Shown piece by piece: positions 9,307 to 53,207 of a DNA stretch of 64,000 bases. The stretch lies in the sequence record MK573636; one strand, 5' to 3'. The notes beneath the pieces were generated by a model. It was not told where the DNA came from, did no database searches, and saw nothing but the letters and a program-made list of their open reading frames with translations. The position numbers and the translations under genes are program-made. Each line of letters opens with the position of its first letter. The first letter of the stretch is position 1. The DNA is from Escherichia phage vB_EcoM_PHB13.

Positions 9307-10775
9307 TGAAGATTGAAACATTAATCGCATTGCCAGCGGCGGGGAAAACTGATGCTATACTTTCCCACGTCCTAGAGACAAAAGAAAAAGCGGTTATTGC
9401 TTCGCCATCTCGTGTTTTAAGTGAACAATCTTACAATAAGTTTAAAAGAATGGGCGGTCGTGCTGTCTTGATCGATAGCACAAGACTAAGAAGCCTTAAG
9501 ACAGTGCAAGCGTCGATAATGCAATCAGTTAAAGACGGTGCTGATGTGATATTCATTACACATACAGCGTTATCTAATATGGAACGTTCAAAAATGTTTG
9601 GTGAATATGCTCTTTACATTGATGAAGTTCCTCAACTGGTTGAATTTAATGAGTATCCGTTTAAGTCTAATCTTGAACTTATCACGAAGCATTGCGAACC
9701 AATCGCCGACGAATCGGAATGCCTACAGAACTTAGTTCTAAAAGACTCTGAGAAGGCCGCTATCAAAGAAAAGATAGAAAGTGCAAAGGATGGTACTGAT
9801 ATGATCGATTCTTCTCTTAGAGGGCTTTATGAGGCGTTATTAGAGAAGAAAATCAACGTTATGGTAAAACATAACGAAGGACACCGGAAGAATGGGTCGA
9901 AAATTGTTTTCTTGAACGATAACAAACACGGTACGTGGGGAGACTTTAAAAAGGTTACGATAGCATGTGCAAATCTCTTTGATACATATAGCGGGAAGTA
10001 TCTACGATACTATGCAAATTGCGATTTTGTTCCGAGTGCGCTAGAATCCAGACTATATTTCAAAGAGTATAAAAATACAGATAGAGTTAATATCATCCTT
10101 ATGACGGACTCCGAACGATGGTCGCGTCACCAGTCAGAAACAAACAATACCTTTGAACGTCTTGTTGATATGGTTAAAAATGAATGTGGTGATGACTTCA
10201 TTTATACCGTGAATCGGGACCGTGAAGCGTGCACAAATGGTATTGGCGAGCGGATACCTTACGGATCTTATGGTCTTAACTCTTACATTCATCATAAAAA
10301 TGTTGCTGTGATGTTCAGCTTTAACCCTCAACGATGGGAGATTGATATTTTAAAAGGTCTTGCTAATAGTTGTGATCTCCCGACAAATGAGTTTTTGAAA
10401 GCGCGTCATGTGTCTGATTATCTGGAACCAGCATTTCAATTATGTTTGCGTTGTAACCTGAGAGACAACGAGAGCAAGGAGAATGTTAATCTATATGTTC
10501 CTGATTGGGCGTTGGTAGATTATCTAAAAACGTTTCTACCTAATGCCAATGTAATAACAGACAGAATGATTCCGCTAGAATGTGGTGAGCGTAAAGGGCG
10601 AAAATCATTTAAAAAGATGTTCGATTTTAACGAGCAAGAGAATGCAAGATTTAACGGATTTAAGTACCGCATGAAGAAAAAGGGAAAAACTCTTGATCCG
10701 TCTGACGGTGAATCAGTAGAGATGGTTAGAGTGTGGATAACTAAGCAAAGAAAGTATAATGGCAATGGGGAATAG
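9306..10775 (+). CDS. P-loop NTPase of unknown function (Walker A ALPAAGKT, Walker B LYIDEV)
   Basis: ORF track 489 aa; Walker motifs read directly; AGA/AGG-rich codon usage unlike neighbours. Confidence 0.55.
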   Translation: MKIETLIALPAAGKTDAILSHVLETKEKAVIASPSRVLSEQSYNKFKRMGGRAVLIDSTRLRSLKTVQASIMQSVKDGADVIFITHTALSNMERSKMFGEYALYIDEVPQLVEFNEYPFKSNLELITKHCEPIADESECLQNLVLKDSEKAAIKEKIESAKDGTDMIDSSLRGLYEALLEKKINVMVKHNEGHRKNGSKIVFLNDNKHGTWGDFKKVTIACANLFDTYSGKYLRYYANCDFVPSALESRLYFKEYKNTDRVNIILMTDSERWSRHQSETNNTFERLVDMVKNECGDDFIYTVNRDREACTNGIGERIPYGSYGLNSYIHHKNVAVMFSFNPQRWEIDILKGLANSCDLPTNEFLKARHVSDYLEPAFQLCLRCNLRDNESKENVNLYVPDWALVDYLKTFLPNANVITDRMIPLECGERKGRKSFKKMFDFNEQENARFNGFKYRMKKKGKTLDPSDGESVEMVRVWITKQRKYNGNGE

Positions 10776-17099: not shown

Positions 17100-17786
17100 A
17101 TGAAACTAACTAAAGAAACTGTTGCGATCCTGAAAAACTTTTCCGCTATTAACCCAGGTATCATCCTGAAAAAAGGAAACGTCCTGATCACCAAAAACAT
17201 GACAAACGTTGTATATGGTGAAGCGACTCTGAATCAAGAACTGGAACACGAAATCGGGATCTATGATCTTAACTCTTTCCTGGGCATTCTGAATCTGGTG
17301 GGCGATGAAGCAGATATTACGGTTGATAACCGCACCGGAAACATTCGTGTGTCTAATGATCGTCTGAAAATTAATTATCCTGGTGCTAGTGCTGCTGCTA
17401 TCGTATCACCGAAAGGCCGAGTTACTCCACCTGCAAGCGATGTAGATTACGAACTGAGCAACGACGATCTGAAACAGCTTATGAAAATGAGCAATCAGCT
17501 TAAAGTGGATCGCCTTGAATTTCTTCCGATTGATGGTCGTCTGATGATCAAAGGTTGGGAAGAGATTGACAAAAATAATCCTAATGAGATGTTTTGTCTT
17601 GATATGGGCGAATATACCGGAACCGCAGACTTCCATTTCTTTATTCGTAAAGATAACATGAAACTGGTTGCTACTGACTTCGGCGATTACAAACTTAGCT
17701 TCACTCGCCGTAAGGCTGTATGGCTGGCAAGTGAAACCGTATCTTATATGATCGCGTGTGACCTTGACTCAAGCTACACCGACTAA
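17100..17786 (+). CDS. 45: sliding clamp gp45
   Basis: N-terminus MKLTKETVAILKNFSAINPGIILKKG resembles T4 gp45. Confidence 0.9.
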   Translation: MKLTKETVAILKNFSAINPGIILKKGNVLITKNMTNVVYGEATLNQELEHEIGIYDLNSFLGILNLVGDEADITVDNRTGNIRVSNDRLKINYPGASAAAIVSPKGRVTPPASDVDYELSNDDLKQLMKMSNQLKVDRLEFLPIDGRLMIKGWEEIDKNNPNEMFCLDMGEYTGTADFHFFIRKDNMKLVATDFGDYKLSFTRRKAVWLASETVSYMIACDLDSSYTD

Positions 17787-17793
17787 TATAATA

Positions 17794-17822
17794 TTTGTGG
17801 GGAGTGTAAATACTCCCCGTTT
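17794..17822 (+). terminator. hairpin GGGGAGT-gtaaat-ACTCCCC plus T-run after gene 45 (terminator or promoter stem-loop)
   Basis: read directly. Confidence 0.4.
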
Positions 17823-17851
17823 TAATGATGTAATTTGTGAGAGGTGATTAT

Positions 17852-18826
17852 ATGCTGAGTGTTAATGAAAATGAGTTTCAGTGGGAACAGAAATACCGTC
17901 CGAAATCAATTTCTGAATGTATTCTGCCGGAAGCAGATAAAAAGATCTTCGCGCAGATTGTTAAGCAAGGCCGAATCCCTTCTATGATCCTGCATAGCCC
18001 ATCGCCAGGTACTGGTAAAACAACCGTTGCTAAGGCGCTTTGCGAAGATGTGGGTGTTGATTATCTGTTTGTTAACGGCGCAGATTGTAAGATTGATTTT
18101 ATCCGCGATGAGATTACACGCTTTGCGCAGAGTGTATCACTCGATGAAGAAAAACGAGAAAAAGGCAAAGTTGTTATTATCGATGAGTATGACCGAGCGG
18201 GGTTGGCTGACGCTCAAAGACACTTGCGTAGTTTCTCTGAGGCATACTCAAACAACGTGACATTCATTATCACAGCAAACGATCTAGAAGGTATTATCCC
18301 GGCATTACGATCTCGATTTGATCCCATCACGTTTGGATCTCCGACTAAAGATGATCAGCTTCGCATGATGAAAGAAATGATCGTCCGGTGTAAAGCAATT
18401 CTTGATAAAGAAGGTGTACCAGTAGAAGAAATGCGCGTATTAGCGGAATTGGTTAAGCAGAACTTCCCAGACTTCCGGCGCGTAATGAAACTTTTGGACC
18501 GCTACGCTAAACATGGTAAAATTGATGCTGGCGTATTGAGCATGGTTATCGAAAGTAGCAATACCGAAGTAACCGATGTGGTGGAAGCACTTAAAACTAA
18601 ACAGTTTGCTAATGTGCGTAAACTCGCACCACGCTATACCAATACATACGCTCAATTTGTCAAGAAACTTTATAATGAGTTGTATACTCAAGTTAAGCCA
18701 GCTTCTATTATTCGTCTCACTGAGATTATCGGTGAAAATAATCAGATGTTTGCGCACGCGGCTGATAAAGAGATTCACATTGTCTTTTTGTTAATGCAAT
18801 TAATGGTTGAATTGGAGTTCGTATAA
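17852..18826 (+). CDS. 44: clamp loader large subunit gp44 (AAA+)
   Basis: Walker A SPSPGTGKTT, Walker B IIDEYD; T4 gp44-like. Confidence 0.9.
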   Translation: MLSVNENEFQWEQKYRPKSISECILPEADKKIFAQIVKQGRIPSMILHSPSPGTGKTTVAKALCEDVGVDYLFVNGADCKIDFIRDEITRFAQSVSLDEEKREKGKVVIIDEYDRAGLADAQRHLRSFSEAYSNNVTFIITANDLEGIIPALRSRFDPITFGSPTKDDQLRMMKEMIVRCKAILDKEGVPVEEMRVLAELVKQNFPDFRRVMKLLDRYAKHGKIDAGVLSMVIESSNTEVTDVVEALKTKQFANVRKLAPRYTNTYAQFVKKLYNELYTQVKPASIIRLTEIIGENNQMFAHAADKEIHIVFLLMQLMVELEFV

Positions 18827-22790: not shown

Positions 22791-23861
22791 ATGTCTGTAC
22801 TGGAAAAACTGAAAAAGAACTCTACCCTGAAAACTACTGCGGTACTGTCTAAATCCAGCTTCTTTAACGAAAAAACAAATACTCGCACTAAGATCCCGAT
22901 GCTGAATATTGCGTTTTCCGGTGATCTTAAAAAAGGCTTTCAATCTGGTCTGATTTTCTTTGCTGGTCCGTCTAAGCACTTTAAATCAAACATGGGATTA
23001 ACCTGTGTTAGTGCATACATGAAACAGAATCCTGATGCGGCTTGTTTGTTCTTTGATTCTGAGTTCGGTATTACTCCCGCTTATCTGGAATCTATGGGCG
23101 TAGATCCTGATCGCGTAGTGCATGTTCCAATCAAGAACATCGAAGAACTTAAATTTGAAATCATGAACCAGCTTGAGCAAATTACCCGTGAAGATAAAGT
23201 GATCATCTTTATTGACTCAATTGGTAACTTAGCAAGTAAAAAAGAAGTTGAAGACGCGATTAATGAGAAATCCGCACAGGATATGACGCGAGCGAAAGCA
23301 CTTAAAGGCTTGTTCCGTATGGTTACGCCGTATCTGACTATGAATGATATCCCGTGCATCGCTATTAACCACACTTACGAAACGCAAGAAATGTTTAGTA
23401 AGACCGTTATGTCCGGCGGTACGGGCGCGATGTACAGCGCGAATGAAGTTTTTATTATCGGTCGTCGCCAGCAGAAAGAAGGTACAGAGTTGACTGGTTA
23501 TGAGTTTATATTGAAGGCCGATAAGTCACGAACTGTTAAAGAAGGGTCGAAGTTCCCGATTGATGTAACGTTTAGCGGTGGTATTAACCCATATTCCGGT
23601 TTACTGGATCTCGCAATCGAGCTTGGGTGGGTCGTCAGCCCGTCGAAAGGTTGGTATTCTCGTTCCATTCTGAATACTGAAACAGGAGAAATGGAAACAG
23701 AAGAACGCAAGTTCCGTGCTAAAGAAACTAATAGTGTTGATTTTTGGAGACCGCTTCTGACTAATGATAAGTTTAACGAAGCGATTAACGAACACTATCA
23801 GCTGGGTCAAGTTATAAGCGATGAGGCAGTTGACAAAGAAGTCGAAGATATGTTAGCATAA
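22791..23861 (+). CDS. uvsX: recombinase UvsX (RecA-like)
   Basis: strong similarity to T4 UvsX (GPSKHFKSN, IAINHTYETQEMFSKTVM). Confidence 0.9.
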   Translation: MSVLEKLKKNSTLKTTAVLSKSSFFNEKTNTRTKIPMLNIAFSGDLKKGFQSGLIFFAGPSKHFKSNMGLTCVSAYMKQNPDAACLFFDSEFGITPAYLESMGVDPDRVVHVPIKNIEELKFEIMNQLEQITREDKVIIFIDSIGNLASKKEVEDAINEKSAQDMTRAKALKGLFRMVTPYLTMNDIPCIAINHTYETQEMFSKTVMSGGTGAMYSANEVFIIGRRQQKEGTELTGYEFILKADKSRTVKEGSKFPIDVTFSGGINPYSGLLDLAIELGWVVSPSKGWYSRSILNTETGEMETEERKFRAKETNSVDFWRPLLTNDKFNEAINEHYQLGQVISDEAVDKEVEDMLA

Positions 23862-23871
23862 CAATGGTAGT

Positions 23872-23896
23872 AAAGGGGCTACGTGCCCCTTTTTCA
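23872..23896 (+). terminator. intrinsic terminator AGGGGC-tacgt-GCCCCT plus T5
   Basis: read directly. Confidence 0.5.
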
Positions 23897-23916
23897 TATC
23901 TAGAGAGGATTATATT

Positions 23917-27267: not shown

Positions 27268-28296
27268 ATGATTTACTACGCAGATTATGAAATAGCGGAA
27301 AAAGCCATATACGGCGAACGAAATTTTAAACGGTTGCATACTAGCTCATTTACGCTGGTCTGTAGTTGTCCGATCTGCGGTGACTCAAAGAAAAATCATA
27401 CTCAAGCGCGATTCCGTATCTATACCTATAAGGATAGTTTGCGTTGCGGCTGTTTCAACTGTAACTACAATCAGCCGTTAGGTGAATTTCTCAAACAGTA
27501 TAAGCCGGACCTATTCAGGGAATGGCTTATGGAACGACGGAAGGAACAAGGCGACCACAAGAACACCACGTTCAAGCCACTGAAAAAGGTAGAAAAGCCG
27601 GAGATTAAGAAAGTGCAAACATTGCCTTTCTGCGAGAGATTAGATACTCTTCCGGCTAATCATCCTATAATAAAGTATGTCAGTGATCGTTGCATCCCTC
27701 ACGATAAATGGGATCTTCTGTATTTCACGAGAGAATGGCAAAAGGTAGCAAATCACATTAAGGCTGATACTTTCAAGAATCCACAACCTGAACCGCGTTT
27801 AGTGATTCCTATCTTTAACCGCGAGAACAAGATAGAATCCATTCAGGGGCGAGCATTGAGAAAGGATTACGGAAAGACCAAATATATGACGATTAAAACT
27901 CACGAGTTAGCGAGTAAGGTCTATGGTCTTGAACGCGCCGATCCGAGTAAACCAGTGTATTTCTTAGAAGGTCCGATCGATTCATTGTTTATTGATAACG
28001 GGTGTGCAATTACTGGCGGTACGTTGGGATTAGATGAAATCCCTTTCCCAGACCAGCGAGTGTTTGTACTTGATGCGGAACCACGGTCTGCCGATACAAT
28101 GCACCGACTGGAAAAGTTTATCAACGCAGGGGAAAAGATTGTATTATGGGATCGTTGCCCGTGGCATTCTAAAGACGTTAACGCCATGATTCAGGATGAG
28201 GGTGCTACACGCGACCAGATCATGGAATATATCAAAGAGAACACCGTACAAGGTCTGATGGCTAAAATGCGGTTTATGAAATATTGTAAATTTTAA
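27268..28296 (+). CDS. 61: DNA primase gp61
   Basis: zinc ribbon CPICGDSK...CFNCNY and Toprim EGPIDSLF; T4 gp61-like. Confidence 0.85.
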   Translation: MIYYADYEIAEKAIYGERNFKRLHTSSFTLVCSCPICGDSKKNHTQARFRIYTYKDSLRCGCFNCNYNQPLGEFLKQYKPDLFREWLMERRKEQGDHKNTTFKPLKKVEKPEIKKVQTLPFCERLDTLPANHPIIKYVSDRCIPHDKWDLLYFTREWQKVANHIKADTFKNPQPEPRLVIPIFNRENKIESIQGRALRKDYGKTKYMTIKTHELASKVYGLERADPSKPVYFLEGPIDSLFIDNGCAITGGTLGLDEIPFPDQRVFVLDAEPRSADTMHRLEKFINAGEKIVLWDRCPWHSKDVNAMIQDEGATRDQIMEYIKENTVQGLMAKMRFMKYCKF

Positions 28297-28304
28297 TTAA
28301 TGAG

Positions 28305-28829
28305 GTGAATATGTCAGAATTTAATTCTTGTGCTGGTCTGGTTAACGAAAAAGATATTAACGCGGCTATCGCCGCATATCATCACGCTATTGCAGAAGGT
28401 AAAGATCCGTTTCAGGTGATGCTCGAAATGCAAACTGGTTTGCAGGTTGCATTATCCGAAAAATTTGATTGGGTCCCAAATCCAACTAAGCTAGAGACTT
28501 GCGGTGAAATGCTGGATTGGATGCAACGGATGGATGACGCTATCGCAGACGAAACACGAGAGCTTTACACATCGCTGGGTGGAATGTCCAATGGTAAAGA
28601 TGCAAGTGCAATCTGGAAAATGTGGAAAAAGAACCACGGAGAAGCGCGAGCGCGTAAATTCTCTGAACTGTCACCGGAAGATCAGCTTGAAGTGAAATTT
28701 GAATTTGTGGACGCGATCCACTTCATTCTGTCAAAGATGATCCCGCTGGGTATTGACGCTCAAGAACTCTTTATTCTGTACTATCTGAAAAATGCTGAAA
28801 ACTTCGCCCGTCAAGAACGCGGCTACTAA
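28305..28829 (+). CDS. 56: dCTP/dUTP pyrophosphatase-like protein (gp56-like, all-alpha NTP pyrophosphohydrolase)
   Basis: 174 aa, position between 61 and dda; assignment by size and position. Confidence 0.55.
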   Translation: MNMSEFNSCAGLVNEKDINAAIAAYHHAIAEGKDPFQVMLEMQTGLQVALSEKFDWVPNPTKLETCGEMLDWMQRMDDAIADETRELYTSLGGMSNGKDASAIWKMWKKNHGEARARKFSELSPEDQLEVKFEFVDAIHFILSKMIPLGIDAQELFILYYLKNAENFARQERGY

Positions 28830-28836
28830 AAATTAG

Positions 28837-28898
28837 TTGACACTACTCTATCATGGTTTTATTATGCCTCCCGTCGAAAGATTGGAGGCTTTTTTATT
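28837..28898 (+). promoter_or_regulatory. promoter TTGACA-17bp-TATTAT followed by hairpin GCCTCC...GGAGGC that contains the SD, then U-run and AUG
   Basis: read directly. Confidence 0.4.
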
Positions 28899-29402
28899 AT
28901 GCAATTTACACCAGAAGAACTTAACATCATTGATGAGGTGATGAACTCTAAAGAAAATATCGATATGTCGATCCTTAATGGATTGATTGAAAAGACTGAG
29001 CGGTTAGTGCATCATGAAGCCTTGTATCGCGGTGTGAGCAAAAGAGAAGGTCGTAAGCTGGATACCTTAATTGTAGGCGATTCTTTCGTTGTAGAGCGTC
29101 CTATGAGCTTTACGCCACTGCAATCAACAGCAGAGGACTTTGCAACCGATGTTTATGCAACAGGAAAGATTATTGCAATAAAACCTACCAAGCCTTGCAT
29201 GAATTATTACGAACATGCTATTGACCGAGTGGTGTCTAAAGAGTATGACAATCCGACTACTCGACTGTCTTTGTATGCTATGTTGGCAGATGAGCGCGAG
29301 TGCATATACAAGACAGGGACGACCATGATCCTTGACGAGATCGAGGAAGTTTACGCGTGTAATGGCGATCTGATAGAGATTTACAAATTTTCTTTAATTT
29401 AA
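28899..29402 (+). CDS. hypothetical protein, possible Mod-like mono-ADP-ribosyltransferase (candidate R / S-x-T / E-x-E motifs: YRG, SFT, ERE)
   Basis: ORF track; motif spacing only partly canonical; in the T4 modA/modB position. Confidence 0.3.
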   Translation: MQFTPEELNIIDEVMNSKENIDMSILNGLIEKTERLVHHEALYRGVSKREGRKLDTLIVGDSFVVERPMSFTPLQSTAEDFATDVYATGKIIAIKPTKPCMNYYEHAIDRVVSKEYDNPTTRLSLYAMLADERECIYKTGTTMILDEIEEVYACNGDLIEIYKFSLI

Positions 29403-29405
29403 GTG

Positions 29406-29434
29406 TTGACAGCACAAACCAGATAGACAATAAT
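29406..29434 (+). promoter_or_regulatory. sigma70-like promoter TTGACA-17bp-AATAAT
   Basis: read directly. Confidence 0.35.
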
Positions 29435-29463
29435 ACACACATACCAACTAAGGAGAATCAATT

Positions 29464-30219
29464 ATGAAACTGTTTGCTTTTAAATCTAACGAAGAATTGG
29501 CGCTGGTTGTTTTCCGTCTGAACTCTATCATGGCTGGTGCTTCACGTCGCAACAAAGACTTCTCTATGAGCTTAGTCACTGTGCGTAACATTTACCGACA
29601 GACTCATTGCGCCTATTCCGGTGAGGCTTTCGGTGAAGGTGATGATGGACTCTCCTTAGAGCGCATTGATTGCAATCTGGGATATGTTGATGGCAATGTA
29701 ATTCCGGTTAAACTGAAATACAATTCTTTCCGTGGCAATCACACTATCGAATCTCTTAAAGAGATCCAGGAACTAGGAACTAACGGTAAACTTTCTGATG
29801 ATGAAATTGCCCTACGTGCGAAGTACATCGAGTGGATCGAACTTAACGAGAATCGCATCAAAAATCAGGAAATGGCAATCGAAGAAAAGAAATTAGCAAT
29901 CGAGCGCCATAAAAAGCACAACGAACCGGAGAAAGCAGAGGCAGCCGAGCGAGCGATTAAAAATACTCTCTTCCGTATGGAAGAACGTTATCAGAAAATT
30001 GCAGATCTCAAGCAAGCCCTTAGCGAAATCAACAAGAAAGAAGAAAAACTTAAGGCTATTGCAAACAATACCGAAATCGTGCTAAAATATACCAGCGTTT
30101 TGATTGAATCTCTTTCTAAGTATGAGAACTTAACGCCAGCACAAAAAGAACGCGTGAAATACGGGCTTCCGATTGATGCGTCGTGGATTGAATTGATGAA
30201 AGCGAAGGTAGGTTTATAA
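29464..30219 (+). CDS. hypothetical protein (size and position compatible with T4 srd; not verified)
   Basis: ORF track, 251 aa. Confidence 0.4.
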   Translation: MKLFAFKSNEELALVVFRLNSIMAGASRRNKDFSMSLVTVRNIYRQTHCAYSGEAFGEGDDGLSLERIDCNLGYVDGNVIPVKLKYNSFRGNHTIESLKEIQELGTNGKLSDDEIALRAKYIEWIELNENRIKNQEMAIEEKKLAIERHKKHNEPEKAEAAERAIKNTLFRMEERYQKIADLKQALSEINKKEEKLKAIANNTEIVLKYTSVLIESLSKYENLTPAQKERVKYGLPIDASWIELMKAKVGL

Positions 30220-30533
30220 TGCATGTATTTGCTGTATGTTATCGTGATAAAGACGGATTCTTTCAATACTCAGTGGACGCGAAGGGTCGCGTCCTAACTT
30301 GCGAAACACATGATGCTGCGTTAGCGTCAATGTGTGATCAGATAGATTATTGTGAGAGTCTATTGGCGGGTGAACCGAAATACAAGGTTGTACCTAAACG
30401 AAAATTTGGCATAATCCGGTCTTCTGAAATTGTTCGGGATGGTATCGAATATAAAATTCCTGAATATGAAAAAGAACGGGTACGGCGAGAACTCAATACT
30501 ATCTGTGTTCGCAAGGTGAGGATTTTAGGATAA
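30219..30533 (+). CDS. hypothetical protein
   Basis: ORF track, 104 aa. Confidence 0.4.
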   Translation: MHVFAVCYRDKDGFFQYSVDAKGRVLTCETHDAALASMCDQIDYCESLLAGEPKYKVVPKRKFGIIRSSEIVRDGIEYKIPEYEKERVRRELNTICVRKVRILG

Positions 30534-31924
30534 TGAGCAGAGTATTAACTTTCGATATGTTAACAGACGGGCAAAAACATGCTTTTGATGTTCTAATGAA
30601 ACGCATTGAACAAAAGAAGCATACAACTGTCCGTGGTGCGGCGGGTACTGGTAAAACCGCAATGATGAAATTCATTGTTCAGGAAATGGTCCGTCGTGGT
30701 GTAACTGGTGTGGTTTTGGCAACGCCTACCCACCAGGCTAAAAAAGTTTTGAGTAAAGCGGTAGGTCGTCAAGCATTTACTTTACATGCTTTATTGCGTC
30801 TTAATCCGACCAACTATGAAGATACTCAAGTATTTGAACAAAAAGATACTCCTAAGCTAGATGATGTTCAGATCATCATTGTTGATGAAGCGAGTATGGT
30901 CGATAAGAAGTTATTTGATATTCTCATGAAGAGTATCAACGGTCGAATTGTTGTTATTGCAGTTGGCGATCCGCACCAGTTACGACCAGTTGATCCAAGC
31001 GGTGCAACGTCAATTTCTCCTTTCTTCACGGATGAAAATTTTCAAAACGTGGAGTTGACAGAAATTAAACGATCTAATGCACCGATCATTGATGTGGCGA
31101 CCGCTGTCCGTAACGGTAAATGGGTATTCGAAAAGCAGTGCGGTAACGAGGGTGTATTCCATAGCTCAACTCTGCCGGAGTTTATGAAGCATTATTTCGA
31201 AACCGTTAAAACGCCGGAAGACCTTCTAGAAAACCGTATTCTGGCTTACACTAACAAGAGCGTCGAAAAACTCAATGAAATTGTGCGTAAGCGCGTTTAT
31301 AACACCGATGAACCCGTGATTGTAGATGAAATTCTGGTTACTCAGGAACCGTTGATCGAATATCTGCGAGATGAACGCGGGAAGAAAATTCCCAATGTTA
31401 TTTTTAACAATGGTGAGATGATCCGGGTTAAAGAGGTTATACCGCGTGAATTTACATTACGTTGCACGGGGGTAGATCCGCAACCAGTTTTAGGCTATAC
31501 TCTGAAAGTGGAAAGCGTCGATGATGACGAAGACAAAGAAATCCTAAATCAGAAAGTCGGTTTAGATGCAGTCGGAATCACTACAGATAAACCAGATTTA
31601 GTAGAAATCAACATTCTGACAGAACAACGTCAGAAGAACATTTTCTCTATCTATCTGAATACGGTCGCCGGACAATATCGCGAAATGAAGAAAGAGAATC
31701 CAAAATTTAAACCAGATTGGGATTCCTTCTGGACGATGAAACGTATGTTCTTGAATGTAAAAGCATTACCAGCTTGCACCATTCATAAGTCACAAGGGAT
31801 CAGCGTAGACCGCGTGTTCCTGTATACTCCTTGTATGTGTACAGACAATGTTGACTTTGAATTGGCAATGCAGTTATTATATGTGGGTGTTACCCGTGCG
31901 CGGTATCGAGTAGACTATATTTGA
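30533..31924 (+). CDS. dda: SF1 DNA helicase Dda
   Basis: Walker A GAAGTGKT, IIVDEASM, LYVGVTRAR; strong similarity to T4 Dda. Confidence 0.9.
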   Translation: MSRVLTFDMLTDGQKHAFDVLMKRIEQKKHTTVRGAAGTGKTAMMKFIVQEMVRRGVTGVVLATPTHQAKKVLSKAVGRQAFTLHALLRLNPTNYEDTQVFEQKDTPKLDDVQIIIVDEASMVDKKLFDILMKSINGRIVVIAVGDPHQLRPVDPSGATSISPFFTDENFQNVELTEIKRSNAPIIDVATAVRNGKWVFEKQCGNEGVFHSSTLPEFMKHYFETVKTPEDLLENRILAYTNKSVEKLNEIVRKRVYNTDEPVIVDEILVTQEPLIEYLRDERGKKIPNVIFNNGEMIRVKEVIPREFTLRCTGVDPQPVLGYTLKVESVDDDEDKEILNQKVGLDAVGITTDKPDLVEINILTEQRQKNIFSIYLNTVAGQYREMKKENPKFKPDWDSFWTMKRMFLNVKALPACTIHKSQGISVDRVFLYTPCMCTDNVDFELAMQLLYVGVTRARYRVDYI

Positions 31925-35856: not shown

Positions 35857-35895
35857 CTTGACATACAAGGGAGATTCTCTATAATGGGAGTCTCC
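35857..35895 (+). promoter_or_regulatory. early promoter TTGACA / TATAAT inside inverted repeat AGGGAGA...TCTCCCT, followed by T-run
   Basis: read directly. Confidence 0.45.
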
Positions 35896-35919
35896 CTTTT
35901 CTTTTATGAGGATTTAATA

Positions 35920-36219
35920 ATGAGCAAAAAGAATAACATGATGATGAGTATGGCAAAGTTCATGGAAGCAGACCTGATCAAAAATACAGTACAGCATGAA
36001 CGCCAGCGCGAAGCCGCAGTGATTGCAGAACAAGGTTTTCAGGTTATCCACAATCCACCTAAAGACACGGTTAAATCGAAATACAGAGACGATCTGAAAG
36101 ACCATGAAGTACGGGAACTGGTTAATGATCTGCGTGACATTGCCATCAAATATCATGGTTATCAGTGCTTACGAGAACTGATCGCAGAGCGAGTAATGGA
36201 TGCATTGAAAAAAGATTAA
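35920..36219 (+). CDS. hypothetical protein
   Basis: in-frame ATG within track ORF 35839..36219. Confidence 0.4.
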   Translation: MSKKNNMMMSMAKFMEADLIKNTVQHERQREAAVIAEQGFQVIHNPPKDTVKSKYRDDLKDHEVRELVNDLRDIAIKYHGYQCLRELIAERVMDALKKD

Positions 36220-44446: not shown

Positions 44447-44481
44447 TTGACACCGGATTAAGGGAGTAGTAAGATACTCCC
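44447..44481 (+). promoter_or_regulatory. early promoter TTGACA with stem-loop GGGAGTA-gtaaga-TACTCCC (third copy)
   Basis: read directly. Confidence 0.5.
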
Positions 44482-44508
44482 ATCAAGAAAAACATTGAGG
44501 AATATATT

Positions 44509-45309
44509 ATGAAAAACATTATCGCTGCGATCGTTCTTTCTACTACGGCTTTCGGTGCTAATGCTGCGTCCTTTGATTGCGCTAAAGCTACTACCAAACC
44601 AGAGAAGTTTATTTGTGCTAATGAGTCAATCTCCGCACTGGATTCTAAACTTAATGAAGTATATGTTAAGGCTGTTAAGATTGATCCATCTCTTAAACAA
44701 GAGCAACGCAACTGGAATAAAACTGTTCGTGATACAATGATCAACATCGGGCAAATACAGCCACTGGAGGCTGTATATAACGCTCAAATCCAAAACTTGA
44801 TGAACGTATTACCTAAAGAAGAAACAGCGTCAGAAAGCGATTCAGAGACTTCTGCGAAGGTTGAAGAAGAACAACCGAAACAAGAAGAAAAAGTGGTAGA
44901 GCAACCGAAGAAAGAAGAGAAAATCTATGGATCTATCACTTACCAGTGCATTGCAAAATTTACATGGAAAATCATTGATGGTATTGAGACAGACAGCCGC
45001 AAAGATCCATTGTATGGAAACTCTACTTATGGCAACAAGGGCGGAAAGCTGAAAATGACCATGACCGAAGGTGAATTGTCTTCTTTCGTATATGTTGATG
45101 AGCGCGAAGTGTTTAAATCAAATCTGACACGCAGCAAACAATATAAAAATATGGTTGTTGGTATGAGCAAACCGGATGTAGCAGGATACTTCAACGAGTA
45201 CAAAATGTGGGTAGGGGAAAACGATGAAATCCGCTTTGAAGTCATCGAGAAAGGTCGCATTAGCTATGATTATGGTACTCAATATGTTTGCGAATATAAG
45301 AAGGGTTAA
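44509..45309 (+). CDS. secreted/periplasmic protein with N-terminal signal peptide and DUF1311 (LprI lysozyme-inhibitor-like) domain
   Basis: signal peptide ...AFGANA/AS; motif FDCAKATTKPEKFICANESISALDSKLNEVY...EQRNW. Confidence 0.55.
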   Translation: MKNIIAAIVLSTTAFGANAASFDCAKATTKPEKFICANESISALDSKLNEVYVKAVKIDPSLKQEQRNWNKTVRDTMINIGQIQPLEAVYNAQIQNLMNVLPKEETASESDSETSAKVEEEQPKQEEKVVEQPKKEEKIYGSITYQCIAKFTWKIIDGIETDSRKDPLYGNSTYGNKGGKLKMTMTEGELSSFVYVDEREVFKSNLTRSKQYKNMVVGMSKPDVAGYFNEYKMWVGENDEIRFEVIEKGRISYDYGTQYVCEYKKG

Positions 45310-53038: not shown

Positions 53039-53207
53039 AAAGTAACCTCAAAAATTAGTTATAGTTCCGAGTATTTATAGAATGTTAACAAAATATCGCT
53101 TCGCGACGTGCCGTAGGCACTGACTAATTTTTAACCGAAACAAACTTTTCTATATTCTAAAGATCTTTCTTCGTTTTGGTTACATTTTAACCAACTGTAT
53201 AAAAATA

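Follow-up and report, generated by a model that had tools for sequence, protein, structure and literature searches.

ModA-type enzymes target RNA polymerase alpha, ModB-type enzymes target S1, EF-Tu and trigger factor, and T4 ModB also attaches NAD-capped RNA to proteins (RNAylation). Both T4 Mod enzymes are early products, and the synthesis of ModA is reported to be highly toxic to E. coli (PMC2988021). In phage RB49, about 51 PeSLs have been described, each consisting of an early sigma-70 promoter, a terminating stem-loop, a Shine-Dalgarno sequence and an ATG (Arbiol et al., 2010; PMC2839356). The stem-loop of a PeSL can take five possible positions, including a place downstream of the -10 hexamer, and in one PeSL the stem-loop was as efficient a terminator as rrnB T1 (PMC2839356). 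At the T4 genes e, soc, 49 and I-TevI, RNA initiated upstream buries the Shine-Dalgarno sequence, while a promoter within the region of the 5' strand gives a translated RNA without that strand (PMC3014915). For RB49, the supplement of Nolan et al. (2006; PMC1524935) lists a TransTerm terminator 'modB<--56' at 9430-9453, with a confidence of 100 and a 10-bp stem, and an early promoter Pe:9496 at 9446-9496.

Here we describe the modB locus in a stretch of 64,000 nucleotides from Escherichia phage vB_EcoM_PHB13 (MK573636), called the window below. The window is from a Krischvirus and is 99% identical to phage RB49, and its region 28300-30600 shows 98.8-99.6% identity to about two dozen Krischvirus genomes, including RB49. 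The analysis indicates that the locus probably combines a Mod enzyme with a promoter and terminator cassette of the PeSL kind, with ModB synthesis tied to its own early promoter. More tentatively, the stem-loop of this cassette may serve two purposes, terminating the 61-56 transcription unit and leaving ModB translatable only from the RNA of its own promoter. The features of the locus are collected in Table 1.

Table 1. Features of the modB locus, in window coordinates
Feature	Position	Strand	Description or basis
Primase 61	27268-28296	+	Gene order
Gene 56 (dCTPase)	28305-28829	+	PHROG 173, E = 5e-37; gp56 in RB49
Early promoter of modB, sigma-70 type	-35, 28837-28842; -10, 28860-28865	+	TTGACA, 17-nt spacer, TATTAT; 11/12 match
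Stem-loop	28866-28889	+	GCCTCC 28866-28871 pairs with GGAGGC 28884-28889; inner 3-bp helix, GAAA tetraloop
Predicted transcription start of the modB promoter	28872-28873	+	C28872, G28873; from geometry, 7th-8th base after the -10
Shine-Dalgarno GGAGG	28884-28888	+	Within the 3' arm of the stem
T-run TTTTTTATT	28890-28898	+	Terminator tail and spacer from Shine-Dalgarno to ATG; read from the sequence
modB-type ADP-ribosyltransferase ORF	28899-29402	+	167 aa, ATG start
Catalytic codon R44	29028-29030	+	
Catalytic codon S70	29106-29108	+	
Catalytic codon E132	29292-29294	+	
Catalytic codon E134	29298-29300	+	
srd	29464-30219	+	Srd family, E = 6e-74
dda.1 homologue	30219-30533	+	Gene order
dda	30533-31924	+	Gene order

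The modB-type gene and its product

The first-pass annotation of this DNA had proposed a Mod-like ADP-ribosyltransferase at the position of T4 modA and modB, between dda and 56. The order of genes on the + strand (61, 56, modB ORF, srd, dda.1, dda) is that of the T4 modA/modB position and confirms this placement. Gene 56 would close the upstream transcription unit, the one that the hairpin would terminate. In the Srd homologue (29464-30219), residues ~23-168 also match PHROG HNH endonuclease and endonuclease families (E = 2.7e-12 and 1.2e-10).

The assignment to the Mod family was upheld. The product of ORF 28899-29402 matches PHROG 832 ('RNA polymerase ADP-ribosylase', E = 1e-20), precomputed Pfam matches name PF26816 (Mod_ADP_RT), and BLASTP of the 167-aa protein finds T4 ModB (8e-11) and T4 ModA (2e-6). 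A search of a Pfam-A copy without PF26816 returned just DUF5507 (E = 0.13), NCBIfam gave no match, and a sequence search against solved structures gave no match at E up to 10. The motifs that had been picked out as candidate R, S-x-T and E-x-E elements, LYRGVS (residues 42-47), MSFTPL (69-74) and ADERECIY (130-137), were the right ones, because R44, S70, E132 and E134 are invariant in Mod proteins. These four residues and G45 are shared by all 11 Mod proteins compared (this protein, T4 ModA, T4 ModB and eight others). R44 aligns with R73 of T4 ModB, and the R73A mutation renders T4 ModB inactive (PMC10468400).

A comparison of the predicted fold with ADP-ribosyltransferase structures had also been suggested, and the AlphaFold model of the 167-aa protein (pLDDT 92.3) shows that fold; the input alignment of the model held 22 sequences, gathered by a profile seeded with phage Mod proteins. 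Among solved structures, the best Foldseek matches are R-S-E toxins (Certhrax, BECa, VIP2, C3 exoenzymes, CDTa and iota-Ia), with a probability of 1.00, and the best matches among viral models are those of phage ModB and ModA (TM 0.85-0.93). Sequence similarity, the R-S-ExE residues and the ADP-ribosyltransferase fold all agree with membership in Mod_ADP_RT. Homology, catalytic residues and modelled fold thus support the identification of ORF 28899-29402 as a Mod-family ADP-ribosyltransferase. By analogy with T4 ModA and ModB, its product would be the phage's single Mod-family arginine ADP-ribosyltransferase, an early enzyme that uses NAD on host proteins. Neither the sequence nor the modelled structure separates ModA-type from ModB-type action for this protein.

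The protein is short, with 167 aa compared to 200-230 aa for the rest of the Mod family. It is without the N-terminal extension (~30-60 residues shorter) and without an internal insertion of ~15 residues. This small size could suggest a Mod-derived protein that is catalytically dead or repurposed, but the catalytic residues are all invariant, the ADP-ribosyltransferase core is modelled with high confidence, and three diverged clusters have the short form in common, all of which make this reading exceedingly improbable. Krischviruses carry one Mod copy per genome and T4-like genera carry two. The first homologue search gave only 3 clusters, and a scan of IMG/VR only 3 loci.

Promoter and stem-loop upstream of modB

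A promoter had been placed immediately upstream of the hairpin, and a sigma-70-type promoter is found there. Both of its hexamers are kept in all aligned relatives, and the GenBank record of GEC-3S annotates the same -35 and -10. The last base of the -10 hexamer, 28865, is directly followed by the first base of the 5' arm, 28866, so that GCCTCC corresponds to promoter positions -6 to -1. Every relative examined, down to a protein identity of 63%, retains this abutment of the -10 and the 5' arm, and so does phage JSE. Transcription by E. coli RNA polymerase commonly begins 7-8 bases past the -10 hexamer, with a preference for a purine after a pyrimidine, and the start is therefore predicted at C28872 or G28873. 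Because the 5' arm occupies -6 to -1, the promoter's own transcript should be without it; by geometry, a transcript from the conserved promoter would include at most one base of the arm. According to Nolan et al. (2006; PMC1524935), C is preferred at -3 to -1 of RB49 early promoters, and these bases are TCC in the modB promoter. A literature search returned no mapped start or RNA 3' end for the modB locus and no Krischvirus start-site study. Desplats is said to have mapped the 5' ends of RB49 early transcripts in 2002.

The spacer of the modB promoter holds TATCAT at 28849-28854 in the window, where RB49, KFS-EC and two metagenomic relatives hold TATAAT. The perfect hexamer is present in RB49 and most relatives and absent in the relative L013. 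If this TATAAT worked as a -10 with a poor -35, RNA would start upstream of the hairpin. We discounted it as an alternative -10, given that it has no usable -35, that the window reads TATCAT, and that L013 does not have it.

The hairpin GCCTCC...GGAGGC, with the GGAGG Shine-Dalgarno inside it and followed by a U-run and the AUG, is present as first described. Its stem spans 10 positions with one mismatch and begins 37 nt past the stop codon of gene 56. The tail consists of T6 (28890-28895) and ATT before the ATG at 28899, and the T-run varies from T5 to T7 among relatives. The free energy of the hairpin is -13.8 kcal/mol alone and -15.0 kcal/mol with the tail. Hairpin and tail together give z = -4.1, with none of 200 shuffles as good, and a local hairpin of equal stability appears in none of 300 shuffles of the intergenic region. 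The site shows the sequence features of an intrinsic terminator, namely a GC-rich stem-loop, a U-run directly after it and a same-strand gene upstream. A plain terminator scan with a loop limit of 8 missed the hairpin, probably because of the internal mismatch, as the unbroken part of the stem is only the outer 6 bp and the loop then measures 12 nt. An Rfam search gave no match at threshold and three sub-threshold chance matches at E up to 1.

RNA forms, conservation of the stem and alternative readings

Folding predictions give different states of the Shine-Dalgarno sequence on two RNA forms. On read-through RNA, the hairpin forms with a probability of ~1 and the Shine-Dalgarno P(unpaired) is 0.00, while on RNA starting at 28873 it is ~0.3-0.8 per base. 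A weak alternative pairing persists in the leader without the 5' arm, leaving some Shine-Dalgarno bases at a P(unpaired) of only ~0.3. The predicted cost to open 28882-28904 is ~14 kcal/mol on read-through RNA, compared to 4.6-5.1 kcal/mol for starts at 28871-28874. In the read-through context, the modB Shine-Dalgarno is the most buried among ~79 candidate + strand genes (0.00 vs a median of 0.52).

These predictions suggest the following mechanism. The stem-loop and U-run would stop transcription arriving from genes 61 and 56, and the terminated RNA would end ahead of the modB ATG. RNA from the modB promoter would begin within the stem-loop and would be unable to form the hairpin, leaving its Shine-Dalgarno free. 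On RNA that escapes termination, the stem would form and bury the modB ribosome site. ModB synthesis would be tied to modB's own early promoter, because the Shine-Dalgarno would be free on the promoter RNA and buried on the read-through RNA. Judging from the geometry, a ribosome terminating on gene 56 should be unable to melt the stem, because the stem lies too far past the stop codon (37 nt). Such a tie to the early promoter is plausible, since ModA is toxic and the T4 Mod enzymes are early products. We infer the start site, actual termination at the stem and the translational block on read-through RNA.

A late promoter upstream was considered as a source of read-through RNA and rejected, as TATAAATA occurs nowhere on the + strand of the window; on the - strand it occurs twice, at 53072 and 58385. 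RB49 has regB (PMC3014915), and cleavage of an exposed GGAG at modB by RegB can be offered as an idea only.

The cassette is kept in 58 phage records, with one copy per genome, and in metagenomic relatives with no more than 63-75% identity in the Mod protein. In L013, with a protein of 63% identity, GCCTCC...GGAGGC is replaced by GCCCCC...GGGGGC. This two-sided change from U-A to C-G keeps the pair and weakens the Shine-Dalgarno consensus (GGAGG to GGGGG), and the one compensatory change supports selection on the stem. It is the only covariation event in a set of five distinct sequences and does not reach significance, with 96 of 500 shuffles reaching the observed score. In L014, a C to A change turns the internal mismatch into a pair, so that the stem runs without a break over 10 bp (-18.9 kcal/mol). 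The value for L005, -10.3 kcal/mol, is understated, as the folded slice was one base short at its start. The tetraloop in relatives is always GNRA (GAAA or GAGA). In phage JSE, the cassette is intact from the -35 to the ATG and the upstream gene is different: a homing endonuclease gene on the opposite strand (L017, 1-644) is inserted directly upstream of the modB cassette.

The first-pass annotation had read the hairpin and U-run as an attenuator or regulated translational switch in the promoter's own leader, acting on a toxic enzyme. The sequestration of the Shine-Dalgarno survives as a prediction, on read-through RNA only. The switch on the promoter's own transcript was not borne out, as the 5' arm lies at -6 to -1, upstream of the expected start. 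The hairpin cannot attenuate modB's own mRNA, because the promoter transcript should lack the 5' arm, and it should form only on RNA from upstream, because the own transcript begins at about 28872-28873. A stable hairpin that contains the Shine-Dalgarno would suit an attenuator, as would the reported toxicity of ModA synthesis (PMC2988021), and the RB49 TATAAT at 28849-28854 might at least in theory initiate RNA ahead of the stem. However, that alternative -10 lacks both a usable -35 and conservation, the conserved promoter places -6 to -1 on the 5' arm, folding of long RNA predicts no competing antiterminator or alternative structure, and Rfam assigns no family. An attenuator in modB's own leader is therefore very unlikely. 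Another possibility is that the locus holds a terminator and a promoter only, with the Shine-Dalgarno in the stem as a result of tight packing, negligible read-through and no regulatory effect. The TransTerm confidence of 100, the strong stem followed by U6 and the PeSL stem-loop that matched rrnB T1 (PMC2839356) all speak for this reading, as does the placement of the Shine-Dalgarno 20-30 nt past the stem in most other PeSLs of the window. On the other hand, modB is the only gene among the ~79 of the window with a fully buried Shine-Dalgarno, and the arrangement persists to 63% protein identity, with the stem kept at the cost of the Shine-Dalgarno consensus. In addition, intrinsic terminators are seldom complete. 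We consider packing without regulation to be rather unlikely.

The inverted repeat could also act mainly as DNA, either as an operator at the start site, bound by a dimeric DNA-binding protein, or as a PeSL recombination site that serves gene shuffling. The compensatory change preserves the DNA palindrome just as it preserves the RNA stem, PeSLs mediate recombination (PMC2839356), and an insertion lies directly upstream of the cassette in JSE. However, the insert in JSE is a gene for a homing endonuclease, with its own means of moving, and homologous exchange would lack a partner, as the window holds the stem sequence only once. The GNRA tetraloop, the inner helix and the following T-run are features of an RNA terminator. 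A role mainly at the DNA level is accordingly most improbable. The preferred reading remains a stem-loop that ends the 61-56 unit and also buries the modB ribosome site on read-through RNA, held tentatively for this second function.

Comparison with other cassettes and known systems

The window contains 63 sigma-70-like promoter matches of at least 10/12 on the + strand and 8 on the - strand, and it is early region almost throughout. Many of the + strand matches have a GC-rich stem over the -10, and the window is full of PeSL-like cassettes. Near-identical PeSL cassettes are found at 649-735, 1884-1970 and 44447-44535, with a GGGAGT...ACTCCC stem that spans the -10; they end in a conserved GAGGATTATATTATG, and the same 3' end follows the promoters at 23830 and 45491. 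At 35858-35925, a PeSL has a 13-bp stem (AAGGGAGATTCTC...GGGAGTCTCCCTT) whose loop holds the -10 TATAAT; a T-run follows, after which a three-codon mini-ORF (ATG AGG ATT TAA) overlaps the Shine-Dalgarno of the next gene. At 17764-17852, a promoter (TTGACT, 17 nt, TATAAT; 11/12) is followed by the stem-loop GGGGAGTGTAAATACTCCCC, which begins 6 nt past the -10; its own transcript would start at or just inside the stem, with a possible 5'-terminal hairpin. At 23830-23905, a promoter (TTGACA, 18 nt, TAGCAT; 10/12) is followed ~13 nt past the -10 by a terminator-like hairpin, AAAGGGGCTACGTGCCCCTTTTT. This hairpin would lie within the promoter's own leader, ahead of a Shine-Dalgarno and ATG, and 23830-23905 is a better candidate than the modB site for a true leader terminator.

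The modB locus of RB49, in a genome with 99% identity, has the same structure as that of the window. Converted to window coordinates, the RB49 terminator at 9430-9453 corresponds to 28866-28889, exactly the hairpin, and Pe:9496 corresponds to 28823-28873, which overlaps it and encloses the modB promoter from its -35 to its -10 (28837-28865). RB49 annotates the gene as modB (AAQ15305), dozens of genomes already annotate it, and identical proteins bear ADP-ribosylase names. In the GenBank record of Ec_Makalu_003, a terminator covers the hairpin and T-run, with a ribosome binding site annotated inside. Nolan et al. (2006; PMC1524935) give coordinates only, with no comment on the Shine-Dalgarno being the 3' arm or on the start inside the stem. 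By 2006, predictions for RB49 covered the gene, its promoter and its terminator, and the type of cassette was described in 2010. The finding is to this extent an ordinary one, because modB, the hairpin terminator and the early promoter were already annotated or predicted. The silencing of modB on read-through RNA is possibly the only point not yet described.

Like the PeSLs of RB49 and phi1 (PMC2839356, PMC4122927), the modB cassette has an A-rich upstream tract, a near-consensus sigma-70 promoter, an adjacent stem-loop terminator, and then a Shine-Dalgarno and ATG. The layout is that of a PeSL, and only the promoter hexamers are shared with other cassettes of the window. A search of the window that allowed 3 mismatches gave a single copy of the stem sequence, so the repeat shared among PeSLs is not found here. 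A typical RB49 PeSL stem has a G-run, a loop and a C-run, whereas the modB stem is C-rich and then G-rich. The modB stem also swallows the Shine-Dalgarno, and modB is a conserved known gene, unlike the ORFans of PeSLs. If true, the dual-purpose reading adds a level of translational control that seems to go unmentioned in the PeSL papers; the word 'translation' is absent from Comeau et al. (2014; PMC4122927). The modB locus offers a clean and compact case for asking whether PeSL-type cassettes also control the translation of read-through RNA.

The window protein resembles T4 ModA and ModB in its R-S-ExE residues, its ADP-ribosyltransferase fold and its early position by srd. It differs from them in sequence (25-33% identity) and in length (167 aa vs 200-207 aa), with an N-terminal extension of ~30 aa missing. 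T4 has the same gene order, with both modB and modA between 56 and srd, whereas the window phage has one Mod gene. T4 modB is preceded by a plain early promoter and no hairpin, in contrast to the promoter and hairpin of the window modB. The C3-like, VIP2, Certhrax, iota-Ia and CDTa toxins share the catalytic fold (TM 0.5-0.6) at 9-16% identity. As RB49-type phages have a single, minimal Mod of 167 aa, its targets could show ancestral ModA or ModB activities.

The gates at T4 e, soc, 49 and I-TevI are the closest parallel to the translational part of the dual-purpose reading. As at these genes, the modB Shine-Dalgarno is predicted to be paired on RNA initiated upstream. The T4 genes use late (gp55) promoters, which delay expression, whereas modB has an early sigma-70 promoter and its hairpin is also a terminator. 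If the dual-purpose reading is true, the stem-loop would restrict an ADP-ribosyltransferase, probably a toxic one, to the opening minutes of infection, and the modB cassette would be an early-promoter counterpart of the late-promoter gates of T4.
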